A stretch of 64,000 nt of DNA, taken from positions 101,424 to 165,423 of the forward strand of contig CALRBT010000001.1 in the NCBI GenBank assembly GCA_943354475.1, in the 5' to 3' direction. The translations under genes and the position numbers were made by a program. The notes below the pieces were generated by a model that was not told where the DNA came from, searched no databases, and saw nothing but the letters and a program-made list of their open reading frames with translations. This document shows, one piece after another, positions 9,639 to 59,920 of the stretch. Source of the DNA: Parcubacteria group bacterium. GTDB lineage: Bacteria; Patescibacteriota; Minisyncoccia; Phycocordibacterales; CALRBT01. Positions within the stretch are counted from its first letter, which is position 1. Each line of letters starts with the position of its first letter.

Positions 9639-10043
9639 ATGATTCACATTAAATACAAACTCGATAAGTCTATTAATCACGGTATAGGTCTTTTCGCAGG
9701 TGAGGACATTCCAAAAGGAGTAGTTGTATATACTGCGAGTCCTTTACTTGACGTGAACTTAACACGAGAAGAGTTCAATTCCTTGAATGAAAAAGAAAAA
9801 GATGAGGTTCGCTGGTGGGGATTTTTTGATGAACAAAGTCAAAAGTGGCATGTTGATTTTGATGTTTCCCGTTTTATTAATCACAGAGCTGACTCAACGG
9901 TAACCCAAGACTCTAATCATACAGAGGCATATCTTGTTACTACACGTGATATTAAAACTGGAGAAGAACTTACCCAAAATTATCTTGAATTTGAAACTGA
10001 AGCAGATTTAATGAAGCGTGGAATAATGAATGTTTTGGGTTAG
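9639..10043 (+). CDS. Small SET-domain protein (putative lysine methyltransferase)
   Basis: HGIGLFAGEDIPKG, RFINHRAD and GEELTQNY correspond to SET motifs (GxG..., RFINHSC, ELxxDY). It ends 9 bp before the smc-like gene. Confidence 0.55.
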   Translation: MIHIKYKLDKSINHGIGLFAGEDIPKGVVVYTASPLLDVNLTREEFNSLNEKEKDEVRWWGFFDEQSQKWHVDFDVSRFINHRADSTVTQDSNHTEAYLVTTRDIKTGEELTQNYLEFETEADLMKRGIMNVLG

Positions 10044-39602: not shown

Positions 39603-40346
39603 TTAATTCTGTGCTGAGGTTGTTAGGATAGTATTAATCAATCCCTTAATGGCGGAATAAGATTCAGCTCCCTCGATTGGAATTATGTCGTTACCTGTTG
39701 AAATGAGGAAGGTGTTGGGGGTACCGATTGTCCCAGCCTTGAGTCCACTTTGATAATCTGCTTCAACTTTATCTGCATGTTTTCCAGAATCTAAGCAGGA
39801 TTGAAATTCACTCTTCTCTAAACCAATTTTTACTGCAACCGTTCCAAGCTGGCTAGCGTCTAGGTTGTTATTTGATGGGGTAATGTCATAAACACTATCT
39901 ATGAAATCCCAGAAGGCGGTATTACCACCAAGCTCTGCCGCACATTCTGCAGCCTCAGCCTCTTTACGTGCTTTTGAGTGGAGCGTGTCGAGTGGGAAGT
40001 GACGATAAACCCAGGCTACAGTGCCGTCTTTGGCATAGTCTTCCATAACCTTCTTCATTGTCTTGTGGAACACTTTACAGTATGGACACTCCAAATCTGA
40101 GTATTCAATCAACACTATCTTTGCTTGAGGATTACCAAGCAAGTGATCCTCTTTTGTAACTGGATCAACTGGTGTTTTGAGATTTTGTCCATCTAAAACA
40201 GTTGCGGTATTATCACGATTGGGAGTAGTTACATGGCTTCTATTGACGAAGTAGTAGGAGCCGGCAATTAAGGCGCCTGCTAAAAGAATCGCAGTTGGAA
40301 CGTTCAGACCTTTTGATACTTTTTTTTCAGGTTCGTTTTCGTACAT
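39603..40346 (-). CDS. Membrane-anchored DsbA-like thiol:disulfide oxidoreductase
   Basis: N-terminal TM segment and a thioredoxin-fold CPYC active site. Confidence 0.75.
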   Translation of the reverse strand: MYENEPEKKVSKGLNVPTAILLAGALIAGSYYFVNRSHVTTPNRDNTATVLDGQNLKTPVDPVTKEDHLLGNPQAKIVLIEYSDLECPYCKVFHKTMKKVMEDYAKDGTVAWVYRHFPLDTLHSKARKEAEAAECAAELGGNTAFWDFIDSVYDITPSNNNLDASQLGTVAVKIGLEKSEFQSCLDSGKHADKVEADYQSGLKAGTIGTPNTFLISTGNDIIPIEGAESYSAIKGLINTILTTSAQN

Positions 40347-45792: not shown

Positions 45793-46083
45793 TTAGAAAT
45801 CTCTTCGAGGACCTCGTTCCTCTCTTGGTCGTGGAGGTTGTGCCTCGTTGACAGTAAGACGACGTCCTTCAAAATCTTTACCGTTAAACATCTCGATTGC
45901 TCGTTCCGCTTCTTCAAGGGTGACCATCTCAACGAAGCCATATCCTTTTGAACGACCGTTCAAACGATCTGTAATAATAGTAGCTGACTCAACGTTACCT
46001 GCTTGTGAAAAGTAGGCCTTGAGTGTATCTTCAGTACTTTCCCAAGGAATTCCTCCTACGAAAAGTTTTTTTAGCTTAACCAT
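45793..46083 (-). CDS. RRM-type (RNP-1/RNP-2) RNA-binding protein
   Basis: RNP-2 KLFVGGI and RNP-1 KGYGFVEM, followed by an RGG-like tail. Confidence 0.8.
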   Translation of the reverse strand: MVKLKKLFVGGIPWESTEDTLKAYFSQAGNVESATIITDRLNGRSKGYGFVEMVTLEEAERAIEMFNGKDFEGRRLTVNEAQPPRPREERGPRRDF

Positions 46084-46268: not shown

Positions 46269-46748
46269 CTAAATAACCTCACTAGCAACGGAATCTTTCT
46301 TTGGAGTTTTTCTTGGTGTAGATTTTTTCTGAAGTAGTTCGGTGATTTCGCGAATATCTTTTTCAATGAGATGTAATCTTCCAAATATCTTTGTAAGTTC
46401 GGTTTCTTCTTGGGCAATATCTTTTTCTGTTTTTTCGGCAATTCGCTTCTCATGTTTTAAACCAGAAAGCAGTATCTCATCTCCAATAAAGAATGAAACA
46501 AAGGTGCCTGTAATGAGTAGAACAAAAACACTAATTATAAAAGAAATGAGTGGATAATGAAGAAGTGGAAGTATGTCGATAATGAGCCAAACACCTCGCC
46601 AAAACATAACAATGGCAATGCCGGCGATAAGTGCATAGAGAAGTGGTCTTTGACTGAGGGCGTGCCGCACCCTATCTTCAAGTCGGTCAAAATACTTGAT
46701 TGCAGTACCGTAACTTTTCGTGAGATTTTTTTCAACTTCAGGAGGCAT
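46269..46748 (-). CDS. Hypothetical membrane protein with a C-terminal coiled/charged region
   Basis: 2-3 hydrophobic helices. No recognised motif. Confidence 0.45.
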   Translation of the reverse strand: MPPEVEKNLTKSYGTAIKYFDRLEDRVRHALSQRPLLYALIAGIAIVMFWRGVWLIIDILPLLHYPLISFIISVFVLLITGTFVSFFIGDEILLSGLKHEKRIAEKTEKDIAQEETELTKIFGRLHLIEKDIREITELLQKKSTPRKTPKKDSVASEVI

Positions 46749-47328: not shown

Positions 47329-49452
47329 TTAGAATCCAAAAATACTACCTAATCCAAGATAGAAGTTTCCCAAGAAATCTCTCATCGAAAGACCAAGTTT
47401 TGCCAAGAATCCTTTTGGTTTAAGAGTGGTTGGTTTTGAGTCTGCATTACTTGTTGTTGTCGCTTTGGTAATAGTAGTTGTTAGTGTTTGGTTTGTTTGT
47501 GGTCTAACTACCTTTTTAATAACTTGAACTGGAGTGGTTGTCGATACAAGAGTTATTTGGTCAGTTGAAGTCCTTTCGATGAACGCGTTAATTTCCGTGA
47601 GTGCTGGCGGGGTTGTAGTTGCAACCTGCTCTGTACTTGTTGCAGTTGTTGTGGAGGTTGTTGTGCGAATTATTAATGCGTCAGATGATCCGCCACTAGA
47701 GGTAACTAGTATCGGTTTAGAGAAGTTTTTTAGAACCCCATTCCATGACAATCCCATCCCTGTTGGTATCGAATAAGCAGTTGCCCACACTCTACTATCA
47801 TTATCAGTGCTCGTTGATTCAATCCCCCCATCACTTTCCTGTAGGCTCGCAAGATAGTCGTGCGGGTTTTTATTATTCATCATCCAGCCATTGTCGATAT
47901 CTTCTTGAGGGTTGAGTGCAGAGAGTGCCGTTACTGCCCAGCTAGTCGCGGGGCTATTGCCGAAACCACCATCATTTTGTTGTCTTGTTCTAAGATAACT
48001 TTTCCCATGGTTGATAGCGTCACTGACATTTGGCAGATCACTGACAAGACTGAGTGCTTGAATCGTCGCAGAGGTAAGGTCGACACTGTCCCAAGAACCG
48101 TTACTCTCTTGCTTTGAAAGAATAAACGCAACATCGGTTTTGATTATTTGATCGGTTGAAGTATAACCAGCGTGTAGAAGTGGTATAAGTGCAAAGACAT
48201 CATCATTAAAGAGTATTGGATCACCAAACTGTGTGCCATCAAAGGAGTCTATAATCTTGCTAATATAGTTGAAGTTAGTTCCGTTGTATGGATTAACACC
48301 AAGTGCTTGAAGTGCCATAGCCCTCCTTTCGTAATCAGTCAGGAGAGCATTCTCTGTTGGTCTGTTGGTTGTGATATAGTCTTTAAGGTTTTCCTTTGCG
48401 GAGTTGCTACCATTATATGACCCAAAGGCGATCGCAACCCAGTCACTATAGAGATCAGCGCCATAGGATCCATTGGCGTGTTGTTTGCTGACAAGAAAGT
48501 TGATTGCATTTACTACGTTAATTTTATTGTGTGTCACGCCTCCGCCTCCGCCACCACCGCCAGTGTTATTATCTGGTGTAGTTGTTGCAGTAGTCGTAGC
48601 TTCTCGTAGAAACGGAGAGAGAATAATTGATTCACTTGAGACCGACCCTGCTTTGTGTACGAAGAGCGAGTAGGGAGTAGTAGTGCTCGGACTAAAGTCA
48701 AAGAGACCTGTAGTACTCGTTGCGACATCTGTACCGTTTATATTAAGGACACTGTCGGTTGCTGTGGCTAGTGTCCAAAGATTACTATCAAAGTAAAAAG
48801 CATTAAGTGTCGTGGTCGCACCGACCTCAGGGGTCATTGTTGAAGAAGTAAGTGTCAGTGGGGAGGTGTTATAGGTAATAACAAGAGTTTCATTTGGGGT
48901 GAGCGTGTGGCCATCAAGTCCTGTTGCACCTGGATTGATAGTACCAGGGGCACTATTAAACCATAGCCAGAATTTATTATTTATAAAATCAGAGATATAT
49001 TCATTGATTCCATCGATGCTGACCCCAAATGAGTACCAGGTTTTAGCCAGTGTCCAACCCATTTCTTTTGCTACTTGCTCGATTGCACAGAATCCGTTGA
49101 TAGTCGTTGTGGTTCCGGTTTCTGAATTTTGGCAAGCATGAACCATAACATCTTGGTTGTACAATTCAGCGTCATTTGCTTGAACTTTAAGCCGAATAGT
49201 TGTTGTTGGTTCTGTGGTTGTAGATGTTACTAATATTTCTGGAGTTGATGTAGACCCTTCAGTTTCAAGAATTTGATCAGTACTCGTTGATGTGGAAATA
49301 GGAGTATGGTCCTCAATAATTATATCGGTCGTTGTTGCAACTGGATCCGTCGTGGTAGCTTCATCTGCCTGTGAAAGGTTTGGAAACAGAATGAGTAAGG
49401 ATACTGTGATAGAAAGAAGGAGCCAAAGAGTGGTAGTTGTTTTTAATTTCAT
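47329..49452 (-). CDS. Secreted 707-aa Thr/Gly-rich protein with four alpha/alpha-toroid (prenyltransferase/squalene-oxidase-like) repeats
   Basis: Signal peptide MKLKTTTTLWLLLSITVSLLILF. The four repeats are FLVSKQHANGSYG, FILSKQESNGSWD, YLRTRQQNDGGFG and YLASLQESDGGIE. Also a Gly8 run and Thr-rich linkers. Confidence 0.65.
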   Translation of the reverse strand: MKLKTTTTLWLLLSITVSLLILFPNLSQADEATTTDPVATTTDIIIEDHTPISTSTSTDQILETEGSTSTPEILVTSTTTEPTTTIRLKVQANDAELYNQDVMVHACQNSETGTTTTINGFCAIEQVAKEMGWTLAKTWYSFGVSIDGINEYISDFINNKFWLWFNSAPGTINPGATGLDGHTLTPNETLVITYNTSPLTLTSSTMTPEVGATTTLNAFYFDSNLWTLATATDSVLNINGTDVATSTTGLFDFSPSTTTPYSLFVHKAGSVSSESIILSPFLREATTTATTTPDNNTGGGGGGGGVTHNKINVVNAINFLVSKQHANGSYGADLYSDWVAIAFGSYNGSNSAKENLKDYITTNRPTENALLTDYERRAMALQALGVNPYNGTNFNYISKIIDSFDGTQFGDPILFNDDVFALIPLLHAGYTSTDQIIKTDVAFILSKQESNGSWDSVDLTSATIQALSLVSDLPNVSDAINHGKSYLRTRQQNDGGFGNSPATSWAVTALSALNPQEDIDNGWMMNNKNPHDYLASLQESDGGIESTSTDNDSRVWATAYSIPTGMGLSWNGVLKNFSKPILVTSSGGSSDALIIRTTTSTTTATSTEQVATTTPPALTEINAFIERTSTDQITLVSTTTPVQVIKKVVRPQTNQTLTTTITKATTTSNADSKPTTLKPKGFLAKLGLSMRDFLGNFYLGLGSIFGF

Positions 49453-49470
49453 AATTTATGATATTAGTTT

Positions 49471-50031
49471 TTAATTTTCACTTTCGTATTTCCACTCAAC
49501 AACATCTCCATTTTTTAGAATGTAGTTTGATATGCCAACAATCGCTCGTTTGTTATTTACGGAGTAGATCCAGTAGAACCCCGCTTTGTCTCCACCTCTT
49601 ATTCCACCGATAGAATCAATTAAAAAACCAAGCACGGGGTATGACTTGGTGGTAAATAATAATCCTCTTTCTTTTTTTGCAACCTCTAAGAGTTTGTAGA
49701 CAGATGATTCTTCAGGAATTGTAATACTCTCTGTGAAATCAGGAAGCTTGAGAATTACTGTTATTTGTTTTTGTTCAGGTAATACGGGTACGTTTTCTTT
49801 GGTAGCTGTACCCGCGACTTCTATTTGGGGTGTCTTTGAAATTGGAGCATCTTCAGGATGCTGGATTAGAGTTCTTATTGAAGTAGTTGCAATCTTCGAT
49901 ACAGTATTAGTCTGTGAAAGATTTTCTGTTGATAAAACAATCTGTGGTTTTTGGTGAATTAAAATTGCAAAGAGAATACCCCCTATAAATGTAACCACAC
50001 CCACTAAAATTAATTTATGTTTTTGCTGCAT
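49471..50031 (-). CDS. Membrane-anchored DUF4430-like protein (transcobalamin beta-domain-like)
   Basis: N-terminal TM segment. The C-terminal GFLIDSIGGIRGGDKAGFYWIYSVNNKRAIVGISNYILKNGDVVEWKY matches the DUF4430 pattern. Confidence 0.55.
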   Translation of the reverse strand: MQQKHKLILVGVVTFIGGILFAILIHQKPQIVLSTENLSQTNTVSKIATTSIRTLIQHPEDAPISKTPQIEVAGTATKENVPVLPEQKQITVILKLPDFTESITIPEESSVYKLLEVAKKERGLLFTTKSYPVLGFLIDSIGGIRGGDKAGFYWIYSVNNKRAIVGISNYILKNGDVVEWKYESEN

Positions 50032-50056
50032 ACGGCAAGTTTTTTAATGATAAATT

Positions 50057-50311
50057 AAAAAAACCGCTTCAATTCTGAGCGGGAATACTTGCATATCGGG
50101 GCAAATTATTTGCGGATACATGATATGGGTTTTCTGCTCGGAAAAGAAACGTTATCTTCAGACCGGACTCGTTTTGATTCAAGAGAGAATCAAGCATTAC
50201 CGTTGCGGCACAGTAGGGGAATCAAACCCCATTTCCAGTCCAAATAGTTTAAAATCACAAGGGTATTAAACATATCAAGACCTGACTCCACGAAAGAGTT
50301 CAAAAGACAAC
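50057..50311 (-). promoter_or_regulatory. Candidate cobalamin (B12) riboswitch with promoter and terminator, in the 5' UTR of the DUF4430/toroid-repeat operon
   Basis: The minus strand reads UGGAAAUGGGGUUUGAUUCCCCUACUGUGCCGCAACGGUAAUGC, matching the conserved GGGAA..GGUG..AAUCC..GCUG.CCCGCAACUGUAA core. A degenerate B12 box AGUCCGGUCUG follows. A promoter TTGCAC-16-TATAAT precedes it and a hairpin CCGCUC..GAAGCGG plus U7 follows it. Confidence 0.55.
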
Positions 50312-50416
50312 AGGTGCATTATATCTACCATGTTAGGGAGTGCAACCATTAATCCTATTGACTCGTAATAAGAATAAGGGTAAAAAATATGCATTAGGGT
50401 ATAATTAAACATCTCT

Positions 50417-51389: not shown

Positions 51390-52040
51390 TCAGAGCTTCT
51401 TTGACTTTGACCACTCGACATTTCCATCGATCACTTTGCGTTCAAATTCGGTGGCGTTGCGCAGACCCTTGGCCATTTTTTCAGTAATAAGTGGAATGTG
51501 TTTAATATCGTCAATGTCTTCGGCGATGTAATGGAGATCTTCTTCACTCGTCACCCACTCCAAATCCTTATCGAGTTTTTTGTACCGCAGAAGATTAAAA
51601 GGGACTGAGAAGCTCCGTAGGCTCTTGATACCTTTTTTGTGCGCATTGGTGTATTCGTGGAAGTATGAGAGAGCCAACTCTCTTTGTGTTCGATACACTG
51701 GATCGCGGTAACGCAGTACCGCATGGTTGGTCTTACTGATAGCGCCCCAATATCCATCTTTCTTGAAGAGGGCGACAACATGATCCTCGTCGTTATGAGT
51801 TTTGAAATCCATTAGTAACGGCACTCCTCCGTTGACCCAAAGGGCGCAGGCGGCAATGAGTGCGGCTTCCATACAGTGGACCTTTTTTTCTCGAAGCGCT
51901 CTGGATACTGACATATACGTCTCACCAGTTTCTTCAAAATTAATAGGTAATTTATCTAAGTAATCTTGGATTTTAACAGGGGTATTTAGTTTGCGCAGAA
52001 GGGAATAGTCGCCTTTAGATAATCCAAATCTAGTGTGCAT
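51390..52040 (-). CDS. Hypothetical protein, possibly a papain-like or transglutaminase-like Cys-His fold
   Basis: A HCMEAALIAACAL ... DHVVALFKKDGYWG arrangement. Weak evidence. Confidence 0.35.
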   Translation of the reverse strand: MHTRFGLSKGDYSLLRKLNTPVKIQDYLDKLPINFEETGETYMSVSRALREKKVHCMEAALIAACALWVNGGVPLLMDFKTHNDEDHVVALFKKDGYWGAISKTNHAVLRYRDPVYRTQRELALSYFHEYTNAHKKGIKSLRSFSVPFNLLRYKKLDKDLEWVTSEEDLHYIAEDIDDIKHIPLITEKMAKGLRNATEFERKVIDGNVEWSKSKKL

Positions 52041-56074: not shown

Positions 56075-56590
56075 ATGAAAACAGAAACAATCAAGAAAGG
56101 AGGAAAGTATGAGCCTGGAAATTTTACATTGAAGGCAAAACGATCGAGTGCAGGATTAGGGCTCTATACGATGGACCCAATTAAAAAAGGGGATTGTGTC
56201 ATCGAGTACGTAGGACCAGTAGTACCTAAAGAAGAATGGGACACTATTAATAGCCTTTACCTTTTTGAGGTAACCAAGAAGAAAACTATCAACGGTGCTG
56301 TTCGGAGTAACACCGCTCGTTATATCAATCACTCTTGCAAGCCAAATTGTGAAATTGATATTCGTAAGGAGAGGGTATTTATTATGGCGAAACGTAATAT
56401 CAAAGCTGGAGAAGAACTAAGTTATGATTATGACCGAGAATATTTTGATGAATATATCAAACCAAAGGGTTGTAAGTGTGGGGCAGAAAAGCATCTCTAT
56501 AACACTCCTAAAAAAGTCACTCCAGCAAAAAAGAAAGTAACAAAAACAACAAAGGGGAAAAAGCCCAAAACCAAAAAGGGTGCAAGATAA
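56075..56590 (+). CDS. SET-domain lysine methyltransferase with a histone-H1-like KKxK-rich C-terminal tail
   Basis: GLGLYTMDPIKKGDCVIEYVG, NHSCKPNC and EELSYDY SET motifs, a post-SET CKCGAEKH, then TPKKVTPAKKKVTKTTKGKKPKTKKGAR. Confidence 0.75.
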   Translation: MKTETIKKGGKYEPGNFTLKAKRSSAGLGLYTMDPIKKGDCVIEYVGPVVPKEEWDTINSLYLFEVTKKKTINGAVRSNTARYINHSCKPNCEIDIRKERVFIMAKRNIKAGEELSYDYDREYFDEYIKPKGCKCGAEKHLYNTPKKVTPAKKKVTKTTKGKKPKTKKGAR

Positions 56591-59845: not shown

Positions 59846-59920
59846 TGGCTCCGCGGGTAGGATTCGAACCTACGACCAATTCGTTAACAGCGAACTGCTC
59901 TACCACTGAGCTACCGCGGA
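59846..59920 (-). tRNA. tRNA-Asn (anticodon GTT), CCA encoded
   Basis: The minus strand reads UCCGCGG-UA-GCUCAGUGGUAGAGC-A-GUUCG-CUGUUAA-CGAAU-UGGUC-GUAGG-UUCGAAU-CCUAC-CCGCGGA-G-CCA. The cloverleaf folds as written. Confidence 0.85.

Follow-up and report, generated by a model that had tools for sequence, protein, structure and literature searches.

The two minus-strand genes at 49471..50031 and 47329..49452 probably form a cobalamin-repressed operon whose products capture vitamin B12, or corrinoids akin to it, on the surface of a Patescibacteria-type cell. All features described here lie on the minus strand of the window, by which we mean the whole stretch of 64,000 nucleotides that was analysed. 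The operon stands under a cobalamin-type riboswitch with a promoter of its own and a terminator platform, and the evidence supports the presence, in its two surface proteins, of the two folds of transcobalamin, namely a DUF4430/SLBB beta-grasp and an alpha/alpha toroid. In these respects, and in the exact limits of both reading frames (186 and 707 aa), the first-pass annotation of this DNA was right. Its expectation of a small-genome host is likewise supported; the organism is of Patescibacteria type, as 80 of 80 related loci belong to CPR MAGs. The system is real and widely conserved, and its kind was already predicted in 2007.

A divergent cobalamin-clan leader and its expression platform

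The leader (50057-50312) genuinely belongs to the cobalamin-riboswitch clan. It falls into a divergent RF01482/RF01689-type subfamily in which two additional hairpins separate P1 from the core. The aptamer (50150..50312), supported by a covariance model from relatives and by covariation, begins with the 5' strand of P1 (50312-50303, paired with 50159-50150), continues through the inserted hairpins A (50299-50285) and B (50281-50238) to a core with P4/P5 (50237-50197), and then to a variable P6 hairpin (50193-50174) and an AGUCCGG "B12 box" read from the sequence (50169-50163). The P6-like hairpin and the AGUCCGG segment had both been claimed beforehand and are present, and the RNA core then quoted, GGAAAUGGGGUUUGAUUCCCCUACUGUGCCGCAACGGUAA, is located at 50236-50197. 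The conserved elements of the core, which are GGAA, the P4 hairpin, CUGUGCCGCAACGGUAA and AGUCCG with its CGG/CCG pairing, occupy 50237-50163; the core is identical or nearly identical in 46 instances, and in relatives it aligns to the RF01482 and RF01689 consensus.

The first-pass annotation had proposed a search with RF00174, the lack of a match above threshold to count against a riboswitch, and there is no such match: none of the cobalamin-clan Rfam models (RF00174, RF01482, RF01689; clan CL00101) reaches its gathering score in the 64-kb window, the best permissive match being RF01689 with 22.0 bits against a cutoff of 36.5 (E 0.014, 50177-50255). We nevertheless accept the leader as real, because a covariance model built from relatives only (R1, prepared without the window's element and without that of the closest relative, L002) has it as its sole match in the 64 kb (74.1 bits, E 7e-16), and because such an element lies upstream of the orthologous operon, on the gene strand, in 64 of 81 related Patescibacteria loci. 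The RNA is a cobalamin-clan element, though not one of the RF00174 class. At the exact orthologous position the gathering score of RF01482 or RF01689 is reached in 12 of the 39 loci scanned, with no member of the insert-bearing subfamily among them.

Covariation points in the same direction. P1 shows covariation from locus to locus (own-versus-cross helix test, p = 8e-12, the window's own score being 19 against a cross maximum of 18-20), P4 shows compensatory pairs across loci, and the P6 region is a hairpin of unrelated sequence in almost all instances. The two inserted hairpins occur in 15 of 15 members of the insert subfamily and also covary; one inserted hairpin (within 50299-50238) is followed by a second, GAGUC(A/C)GG-like motif.

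A leader that scores below every Rfam gathering threshold, and whose standard architecture is disrupted by two extra hairpins, might alternatively be a degenerate relic, or a structured 5' UTR that responds to no ligand and merely resembles a cobalamin aptamer. We regard this as very improbable: at a protein identity of 60%, the window and L002 still have almost the same core, B12-box segment and platform, and their variable helices change in a compensatory manner, the insert-bearing subfamily is conserved across many CPR lineages, and a conserved terminator/antiterminator is present.

A promoter of its own and a terminator-type platform had also been claimed for the leader. The predicted promoter (50318..50345) consists of a -35 box TTGCAC (50345-50340), a 16-nt spacer and a -10 box TATAAT (50323-50318), all read from the sequence; the -10 box and a -35 box TTGC(A/G)C are conserved in L002, and other relatives have TTGAC-N17-TAnAnT at the same position. 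A consensus promoter scan did not list it, the -35 box agreeing at only 3 of 6 positions. Downstream of P1 lies a P13-like hairpin UUUUC-CGAGCA-GAAAA (50130..50145; consensus in relatives (U/A)UCC-CGAGCA-GGA(A/G)), of which CCCGAGCAGG is invariant in alignment A3 while the stem flanks covary, and one strand of which is complementary to the 5' arm of an intrinsic terminator. This terminator, CCGCU-(9-nt loop)-AGCGG followed by U7 (50057..50082), was read from the sequence and is conserved in L002; it escaped the terminator scan, whose loop limit was 8 nt. An alternative antiterminator can be drawn from the terminator region (50057-50082) together with 50130-50150. Folded alone, the platform prefers the antiterminator (-21.5 kcal/mol) to P13 plus terminator (-14.3 kcal/mol), calculated energetics that fit an OFF switch.

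From this terminator/antiterminator alternative, and from the B12-related character of the regulated and neighbouring genes, we infer that the candidate riboswitch binds cobalamin and changes expression in response. Transcription would start about 7 nt past the TATAAT box (50323-50318), and the leader would fold into the divergent cobalamin-clan aptamer. At low cobalamin the strand around the CCGAGCAG hairpin (50130-50150) would pair with the 5' arm of the terminator and permit readthrough into both genes; with cobalamin bound, the aptamer and the P13-like hairpin would be stabilised, the CCGCU/AGCGG-U7 terminator (50082-50057) would form, and transcription would stop.

Domain content of the two surface proteins

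Gene 1 (49471..50031) encodes a 186-aa membrane-anchored DUF4430/SLBB protein, as the first-pass annotation had it. An N-terminal hydrophobic (TM) helix at residues 7-25 is followed by a linker of about 60 aa and by a DUF4430 domain at residues ~103-186 (49725-49474), which matches Pfam PF14478 over residues 109-183 (E 5.9e-14, 52.7 bits against a cutoff of 23.8).

Gene 2 (47329..49452) encodes a 707-aa surface protein consisting of a signal peptide (residues 1-29), a diverged DUF4430/SLBB beta-grasp (residues 80-195, 49215-48868), an Ig-like domain (residues 196-285, 48867-48598), an alpha/alpha toroid (residues 305-580, 48540-47713) and a C-terminal hydrophobic tail (residues 682-705, 47409-47338), with Thr-rich disordered stalks or linkers. 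That it is secreted and has four toroid repeats was correctly recognized; the repeats, of the form Q-x-x-(D/N)-G-(G/S)-(W/F/Y/I), are QHANGSY, QESNGSW, QQNDGGF and QESDGGI. In Pfam it matches PF13243 SQHop_cyclase_C, scoring 28.3 bits where the cutoff is 26.1. The Cobalamin_bind match that had been anticipated is absent: gene 2 itself matches neither PF01122 nor PF14478 in Pfam at E up to 1. Among nine homologues tested, four exceed the 25-bit cutoff of PF01122 (P0004 with 29.1 bits, P0047 with 31.0, P0053 with 27.0 and P0064 with 26.8) and two fall just below it.

It had been proposed that the two halves of a transcobalamin-like module are encoded separately, the beta-domain by gene 1 and the toroid by gene 2. 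The division is not a clean one, since gene 2 appears to carry both transcobalamin-like halves in one chain, in the order beta-Ig-alpha, with gene 1 as an additional beta-domain paralogue beside gene 2's own domain. Homologues of gene 2 match PF14478 at the position aligned to the window's N-terminal domain, and the family combines the toroid with one to three DUF4430 domains at the N-terminus. As modelled by AF2, the N-terminal domain (E83-92, E95-105, H120-131, E135-140, E143-149, E162-168, E171-174, E189-194) runs strand-strand-helix-beta hairpin-three strands, the transcobalamin-like SLBB signature; a beta-hairpin inserted after the helix defines that clade (PMC1796856). For the model as a whole the pTM is 0.48, and the relative orientation of its domains is unreliable.

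One may still suppose a strict split, in which the B12-binding unit is a heterodimer made in trans, gene 1 supplying the beta-domain and gene 2 the toroid, and gene 2's N-terminal domain has degenerated or has some different function, for instance in docking or as a second site. The small gene lies beside the large one in 66 of 73 loci, a frequency suggestive of obligate partners; gene 2's N-terminal domain is far more diverged, matching a DUF4430 profile of the small proteins at E 0.005 where gene 1 scores 7.8e-33; and Lactobacillus sakei has the two halves as separate proteins. We nonetheless consider a strict split rather unlikely. The domain is a confidently folded, conserved beta-grasp (pLDDT >90, with W162 invariant and C107/C122 near-invariant among homologues), at family level it is homologous to the small DUF4430 proteins (hhalign, 97.4%, E 1.4e-11), the large protein of relatives can have as many as three such domains, and the small gene is missing from four loci. 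Binding of B12 in cis, within gene 2, and in trans are not mutually exclusive.

By sequence the toroid is closest to the QW repeats of squalene-hopene cyclase, and homologues of gene 2 are named "terpene cyclase/mutase family protein" by NCBI. It could be argued that gene 2 encodes a terpene-cyclase/prenyltransferase superfamily enzyme acting on a surface lipid or glycan, given that squalene-hopene cyclase and drimenyl-diphosphate synthase are what it matches best in both sequence and structure, and that its NDD motif (N416-D417-D418) and D458 are invariant, D458 being weakly aligned with D376 of the cyclase. The catalytic DxDD is, however, not kept (D374-V-D376-D377 of the cyclase aligns to S-V-D-L-T of gene 2), the NCBIfam scores are far below their cutoffs (TIGR01787, 30.8 against 322.7 bits; TIGR01507, 20.2 against 431), and gene 2 has a single toroid of about 275 aa while the 631-aa cyclase has additional toroid sequence. 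An extracytoplasmic protein with a signal peptide and stalks is also remote from isoprenoid-diphosphate substrates, and an enzyme would leave the DUF4430 fusion and the B12 riboswitch context unexplained. We therefore judge an enzymatic role extremely improbable; the genes annotated as terpene cyclases/mutases in these CPR genomes are probably vitamin binders and not enzymes of lipid biosynthesis.

Operon conservation, neighbours and a possible route of uptake

The gene pair recurs in related genomes, a synteny comparison that the first-pass annotation had suggested: the order riboswitch, small gene, large gene is found in 53 loci. A DUF6580 gene adjoins the operon in 32 of 81 loci, and encodes a polytopic membrane protein, about 180 aa long, whose only PDB match, a weak one (E 0.013), is to 6FNP_A, a 182-residue membrane-protein chain of the ECF-CbrT B12 transporter, presumably CbrT itself to judge from its length. 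EcfA and EcfT do not recur next to DUF6580 in the related loci. Directly upstream of the operon, about 11 related loci have an adenosylcobalamin-dependent ribonucleotide reductase of the RTPR type. In the 64-kb window there is no DUF6580 gene, no such reductase and no other gene for a B12-dependent enzyme, nor is BtuB, BtuCDF, an ECF module or any ABC importer encoded anywhere in it, in agreement with the earlier observation that no transporter is adjacent.

Might the proteins capture another tetrapyrrole or cofactor (heme, cobinamide or another corrinoid precursor) in place of complete cobalamin? Genes under a riboswitch normally serve the ligand that is sensed. A cobalamin-clan riboswitch precedes the operon in 64 loci, and the operon is linked to an AdoCbl-dependent reductase and to a CbrT-like membrane protein, which makes another ligand improbable.

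What the analysis shows directly is the clan membership and conservation of the RNA, the domains of both proteins, the conservation of the operon and its B12-related neighbours. On the preferred reading, capture of B12, we infer ligand binding by both proteins and a hand-over between them along the following lines. Both products would be exported. The gene 1 protein would be held in the membrane by its N-terminal helix and display one transcobalamin-beta-like (SLBB/DUF4430) domain on a short linker; the gene 2 protein would be anchored by its C-terminal hydrophobic tail, its long Thr-rich stalks displaying the beta-like domain, the Ig-like spacer and the toroid. If transcobalamin is a guide, toroid and beta-grasp domain would enclose the corrinoid between them, and it would then be handed inward to a transporter in the membrane, probably via the gene 1 protein, which sits close to the membrane. 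A candidate is the CbrT-like DUF6580 protein encoded beside the operon in many relatives, which in the present genome would lie outside the window.

CPR/Patescibacteria have tiny genomes and take cofactors from other cells, and their acquisition of B12 is not documented in the literature searched. The locus and its roughly 80 relatives offer a coherent, testable answer to the question of B12 supply in CPR, namely B12-repressed surface capture. About two thirds of these riboswitches are missed by standard Rfam annotation, so that B12 regulons are under-called in CPR genomes. We add a tentative and broader speculation, for which we would claim somewhat less than even chances: that CPR, unable to make B12, share a dedicated and undescribed acquisition apparatus. 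It would comprise a "bacterial transcobalamin" of beta-Ig-toroid build carried on stalks, a beta-domain protein near the membrane as relay for the vitamin, and a CbrT-like DUF6580 protein acting as a solitary transporter with no ECF module. Their common control would lie with a riboswitch subclass, mostly missed by current Rfam models, in which two hairpins are inserted and a B12-box-like motif is duplicated. If this were true, the locus would represent a tractable model both for the prokaryotic ancestor of the animal B12 carriers and for the stripping of cofactors from hosts by episymbionts.

Relation to known systems

With RF01482 (AdoCbl) and RF01689 (AdoCbl-II) the window's leader shares the core of GGAA(G/A), P4 hairpin and CUGUGCCGCAACGGUAA, the AGUCCG segment whose CCG pairs with CGG of ACGGUAA, and the enclosing outer helix; B12-related genes are likewise controlled, and related loci pass the Rfam cutoffs at the same position. 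The window's copy differs in its two extra hairpins (50299-50238), in the second GAGUC(A/C)GG-like motif, and in a conserved CGAGCA-loop hairpin that doubles as antiterminator strand.

The pairing of the two genes had been presented as not a textbook arrangement, and yet it is not new in kind, with precedents in two bodies of work. Burroughs, Balaji, Iyer and Aravind (2007, Biol Direct 2:4, PMC1796856) reported bacterial proteins in which SLBB and toroid are fused, either of them coming first and Ig-like domains often being present; these are secreted or surface proteins encoded in operons with a second paralogous SLBB gene in organisms without B12 synthesis, and the authors predicted B12 scavenging; the prediction of B12 binding for bacterial toroid/beta-grasp proteins, two-gene versions included, thus dates from that year. 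Those systems belong to Firmicutes and archaea and usually lie beside CbiO/CbiQ-type (ECF) genes, and riboswitches are not mentioned. The window shares with them the surface beta-grasp and toroid, the Ig-like domain and the second paralogous SLBB gene; it differs in its Patescibacteria host, in riboswitch control and in having no ECF module, and the recurrent neighbour among its relatives is a solitary DUF6580 protein. No bacterial member of the family shown biochemically to bind B12 is known to us or was found in the literature searched, and the locus joins an already known, still unvalidated kind of system.

In the L. sakei ECF operon lsa1836-1840, the beta-like Lsa1839 and the alpha-like Lsa1840 are encoded by separate adjacent genes and both exported, and its authors proposed heme as the ligand (bioRxiv 10.1101/864751). 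The likeness lies in beta-like and toroid modules in two adjacent genes with exported products; that operon is, however, complete with its ECF transporter, whereas the window has no ECF genes, is under a cobalamin riboswitch, and has a toroid protein with a beta-like domain of its own.

The animal carriers transcobalamin, intrinsic factor and haptocorrin (PDB 2BB5/2BB6, 2PMV, 4KKI/4KKJ) are soluble and of the order alpha-beta, as compared to the beta-Ig-alpha order of the membrane-tethered, stalk-borne gene 2 protein, and the window has in addition a separate beta-domain protein and a toroid without a PF01122 match. On the side of transport, the polytopic DUF6580 neighbour of about 180 aa in the relatives resembles, through weak similarity, ECF-CbrT (PDB 6FNP; Santos et al. 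2018, PMC5997447) and the solitary S-component-like B12 transporters.

A divergent cobalamin riboswitch and its expression platform

The leader upstream of gene 1 is 385 nt long (minus strand), and the core sequence that the first-pass annotation had read in it is present at 50236-50197 (-), followed by a variable hairpin (50193-50174, minus strand) and an AGUCCGG segment (50169-50163, minus strand). At gathering thresholds, no Rfam cobalamin model matched anywhere in the window, the sole match at that level being a tRNA gene at 59849-59920 (-) (74.5 bits); the cobalamin riboswitch claim therefore formally fails the RF00174 search that the annotation itself had named as its refutation. The best permissive match of the leader is to RF01689 (AdoCbl-II), at 22 bits versus a cutoff of 36.5 (E 0.014). 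As the leader lies below the Rfam cutoffs, the matter was settled instead by comparative data.

A single-sequence scan of species genomes found no relatives of gene 2, so an alignment-based scan was needed, and this gathered 80 loci, all from Patescibacteria/CPR MAGs. In the closest relative, L002, the gene order is that of the window, gene 2 is 60% identical and the leader 76% identical. No change is seen in the core or in a 39-nt 3' segment of this leader, and the hairpin between them has a different sequence that still pairs. The motif CTGTGCCGCAACNGTAA lies upstream of the toroid gene, on the gene strand, in 45 of the 80 scanned loci, and the small P4 hairpin carries compensatory changes across the loci that bear it. 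An Rfam gathering score is passed at exactly the orthologous position in 12 of 39 loci scanned, with top scores in related loci of 63.5 bits for RF01482 and 44.6 bits for RF01689. A covariance model trained on 16 relatives, with the window and L002 excluded (model R1), has a single match across all 64 kb of the window (50126-50249(-), 74.1 bits, E about 7e-16) and detects the element in 64 of 81 related loci, on the gene strand every time. On this sequence evidence, the leader RNA does belong to the cobalamin-riboswitch clan, as a divergent member of RF01482/RF01689 type; its assignment to the RF00174 class is not upheld.

The outer helix P1 (UGUUGUCUUU/GAAGAUAACG in the window's element) was found almost everywhere among the elements, in unrelated sequences, and pairing between the 5' and 3' strands of one element is better than between strands taken from different elements (Mann-Whitney p = 8e-12). 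The P6 region, too, nearly always folds into a hairpin whose sequence is arbitrary. Since MAFFT alignments left the variable helices out of register, RNAalifold detected no more than P4, P5 and the 3' hairpin, and per-sequence helix searches, the own-versus-cross control and per-sequence folds took its place. Two additional hairpins lie between the P1 5' strand and the core in the window, L002 and 13 other loci, and the folds give exactly two stem-loops, differing in sequence, in 15/15 of these insert-bearing elements. Among the loci scanned, no member of this subfamily reaches any Rfam cutoff; the window's element scores low with Rfam because those models place the outer helix directly next to the core, where the inserts intervene.

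We note that the junction after the first extra hairpin in this subfamily reads GAGUCAGG, GAGUCC or GGGUCC (in the window GAGUCAGG, 50281-50288, minus strand). The "B12 box" further downstream, GAGUCCGG (50163-50170, minus strand), is almost the same, and hence each insert-bearing aptamer has the motif twice; the duplication is also seen in the leaders of L013, L018, L020, L044 and L081. A role as decoy or as alternative pairing partner is conceivable for the second copy.

A perfect TATAAT box at 50323-50318 (-), with TTGCAC 16 nt upstream, is kept in L002. The terminator-type platform that had been claimed can be read in the sequence as a stem plus U7 at 50082-50057 (-). On the 3' side of the aptamer is a hairpin (50145-50130 (-)) whose CGAGCA loop is invariant and whose stem flanks covary among relatives; its complementarity to the terminator's 5' arm allows an antiterminator to form instead. 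With the platform folded alone, this antiterminator (-21.5 kcal/mol) is favoured over hairpin plus terminator (-14.3 kcal/mol), so the default state would be read-through. We infer that stabilisation of the aptamer and hairpin by ligand would permit termination, i.e., the OFF logic usual for such riboswitches.

Architecture of the two surface proteins

Both reading frames are exactly as first annotated, gene 1 at 49471..50031 (-) (186 aa) and gene 2 at 47329..49452 (-) (707 aa), separated by 18 nt. Gene 1 does encode a membrane-anchored DUF4430 protein, with an N-terminal hydrophobic helix and a C-terminal PF14478 domain (E 5.9e-14); a word-indexed homologue search with it returned only 2 matches and thus no deep alignment for its structure. 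Gene 2, also as proposed, is secreted and toroid-bearing, with a signal peptide (…NLSQA|DE) and four Q-x-x-(D/N)-G-(G/S)-aromatic repeats. The PF14478 match expected of gene 1 was accordingly recovered; of the Cobalamin_bind/prenyltransferase-like matches expected of gene 2, PF01122 (eukaryotic cobalamin-binding protein) was absent, gene 2 itself matching PF13243 just above its cutoff; PF01122 matches in its homologues fall on the toroid and exceed the Pfam cutoff in 4 of 9. A homologue search with gene 2 returned 263 relatives, almost all CPR, many of which carry PF14478 and PF01122 besides PF13243, and a rescan placed one to three copies of DUF4430 N-terminal to the toroid.

A profile of the loci's small DUF4430 proteins matches the N-terminal part of 73 large proteins and, weakly, that of the window's gene 2 (E 0.005), and the N-terminal domain family of the large proteins, compared profile to profile with the small-protein domain, gave 97.4% probability (E 1.4e-11). 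The AlphaFold model of gene 2, built with a 32-sequence alignment, has three confident domains (pLDDT above 90), a beta-grasp domain (residues 80-195), an Ig-like all-beta domain (residues 196-285) and an alpha/alpha toroid (residues 305-580), as well as disordered stalks and a C-terminal helix; a single-sequence model of residues 78-285 reached a pLDDT of 30. A hydrophobic tail ends every gene 2 relative, and the cysteine pair C107/C122 is near-invariant, as would suit a protein outside the cytoplasm. Gene 2 thus combines a beta-like and an alpha-like part in one chain and is not a bare alpha-half, gene 1 is an extra paralogous beta-domain protein, and the clean two-gene split of the halves that was first envisaged is lost, as gene 2 holds both a DUF4430-like N-terminal domain and the toroid.

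Gene 2 is Thr-rich in long stretches. An eight-glycine run lies between the Ig-like domain and the toroid (residues 297-304), and the very Thr-rich disordered segments (residues 24-78 and 584-680) may be O-glycosylated stalks.

By sequence profile, the closest solved proteins to the toroid are squalene-hopene cyclases (E 1e-10, via QW-type repeats), and the only cobalamin-carrier match is that of the intrinsic-factor beta-domain to the N-terminal domain of gene 2 (E 0.2). Fold and sequence of the toroid are compatible with a transcobalamin-like alpha-domain without proving one, and the B12 assignment of the proteins rests mainly on context. A thioester (alpha-2-macroglobulin/TED) reading of gene 2 was rejected, its TED matches being weak and its only cysteines C107 and C122, with no CxEQ motif.

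The operon neighbourhood in relatives and in the window

Synteny of the pair was found: among the 73 loci in which a large gene was called, 53 (the window's locus counted) have the riboswitch followed by the small DUF4430 gene and then the large gene. Within these 73, the riboswitch went undetected in 11, several of them owing to contig ends or more genes upstream, and the small gene is missing in 4. The neighbour seen most often is DUF6580 (PF20221), a ~180-aa polytopic membrane protein encoded next to the operon, in the same direction, in 32 of 81 loci. Its only solved-structure match is the 182-residue membrane-protein chain of 6FNP (E 0.013), the ECF-CbrT vitamin-B12 transporter, and we infer that this chain is CbrT; against a PF07155-like neighbour cluster, hhalign gave 21%. 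These profile comparisons weakly suggest that DUF6580 is related to ECF S-components, which we regard as a lead and not a finding; no EcfA/EcfT-like genes recur near the operon in related loci. Immediately upstream, ~11 loci have an AdoCbl-dependent ribonucleoside-triphosphate reductase (TIGR02505, E 2e-84), and in several of these loci reductase, DUF6580, small gene and large gene are tightly packed. L057, L058, L059 and L070 (and L056) have an RTPR-type reductase, DUF6580, small and large gene packed on one strand and no riboswitch within the 3-kb flank; it may lie upstream of the reductase, beyond that flank.

The 64-kb window itself contains no DUF6580, no ABC, ECF or TonB system and no B12 enzyme, which bears out the absence of an adjacent transporter noted at first pass, and its ORFs gave no match to DUF6580 and ECF-S-like profiles at E up to 10. 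A 159-aa membrane protein downstream of the operon (46269-46748), considered as the missing DUF6580-type transporter, is unrelated (hhalign 0.2%), and MscL, directly downstream, was set aside as a part of the system, being common only to L002 and not a recurrent neighbour.

Several further genes were observed. A conserved cytoplasmic protein of ~215 aa (…KTNHAVLRYR…SYFHEY…), with no Pfam or NCBIfam match, is encoded a few kb or less from the operon in 8 loci, the window's (51390-52040 (-)) among them; it is also found at L002:3643-4281, immediately upstream of the riboswitch, and in L042, L043, L064, L068, L077 and L082. A lipoprotein-like ORF of ~125 aa (…LSGCGQ…) with a C-terminal DUF4430-like motif (…WNLYIGNE…ISWRYEP) is directly downstream of the large gene in L008 (5553-5921) and four other loci, and a further small SLBB gene is downstream in six loci, so that the beta-domain proteins number at least three in some relatives. 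In ~5 loci (including L055:2233-3358), the large gene is followed by genes for a thioredoxin-like protein (…WCPHCQ…) and for a membrane protein of DsbB/VKOR type (…CELCW…); such neighbours fit a disulfide need of exported proteins, since C107/C122 is near-invariant in the gene 2 N-terminal domain. The window has a DsbA-like gene at 39603-40346 (-). The window also encodes two SET-domain proteins (9639-10043 (+) and 56075-56590 (+)) and an RRM_1 RNA-binding protein (45793-46083 (-)), domain types that are more familiar in proteins of eukaryotes. Many "binchicken" or TPA MAG records with the CPR-type operon (including L006, L011, L015, L016, L021, L026 and L028) are titled "uncultured Gammaproteobacteria bacterium" or "Candidatus Saccharibacteria", which look like placeholder or incorrect taxonomy.

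A proposed corrinoid-capture operon and its known counterparts

Overall, we consider it probable that the locus is a riboswitch-controlled surface corrinoid-capture operon. At low B12, transcription would read through into genes 1 and 2, and both proteins would be exported and tethered, that of gene 1 near the membrane via its N-terminal helix and that of gene 2 on long stalks via its C-terminal tail. A corrinoid might then be captured between toroid and beta-grasp domain and handed inward, via the gene 1 protein, to a membrane transporter encoded outside the window, while high B12 would lead to termination.

Literature searches found nothing on DUF6580 or on a cobalamin riboswitch in Patescibacteria. 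As far as the searchable literature shows, what is new is the Patescibacterial distribution of this operon type, its link to a riboswitch of a subclass that Rfam mostly misses, and its DUF6580 and RTPR neighbourhood. In 2007, Burroughs et al. (PMC1796856) described bacterial proteins that join SLBB and toroid in both possible orders, fusions with Ig domains and operons encoding a second SLBB paralogue, and predicted B12 scavenging; a Lactobacillus sakei operon is a precedent for separate alpha-like and beta-like genes (bioRxiv 10.1101/864751). The window's locus therefore belongs to an already known kind of predicted B12-scavenging system. It resembles the systems of Burroughs et al. in the combination of SLBB and toroid, Ig fusion and paralogous SLBB gene; it differs from the L. 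sakei operon, in which the alpha-like and beta-like parts are separate genes, in that gene 2 has both halves, and its beta-then-alpha order is the opposite of that in animal transcobalamin.
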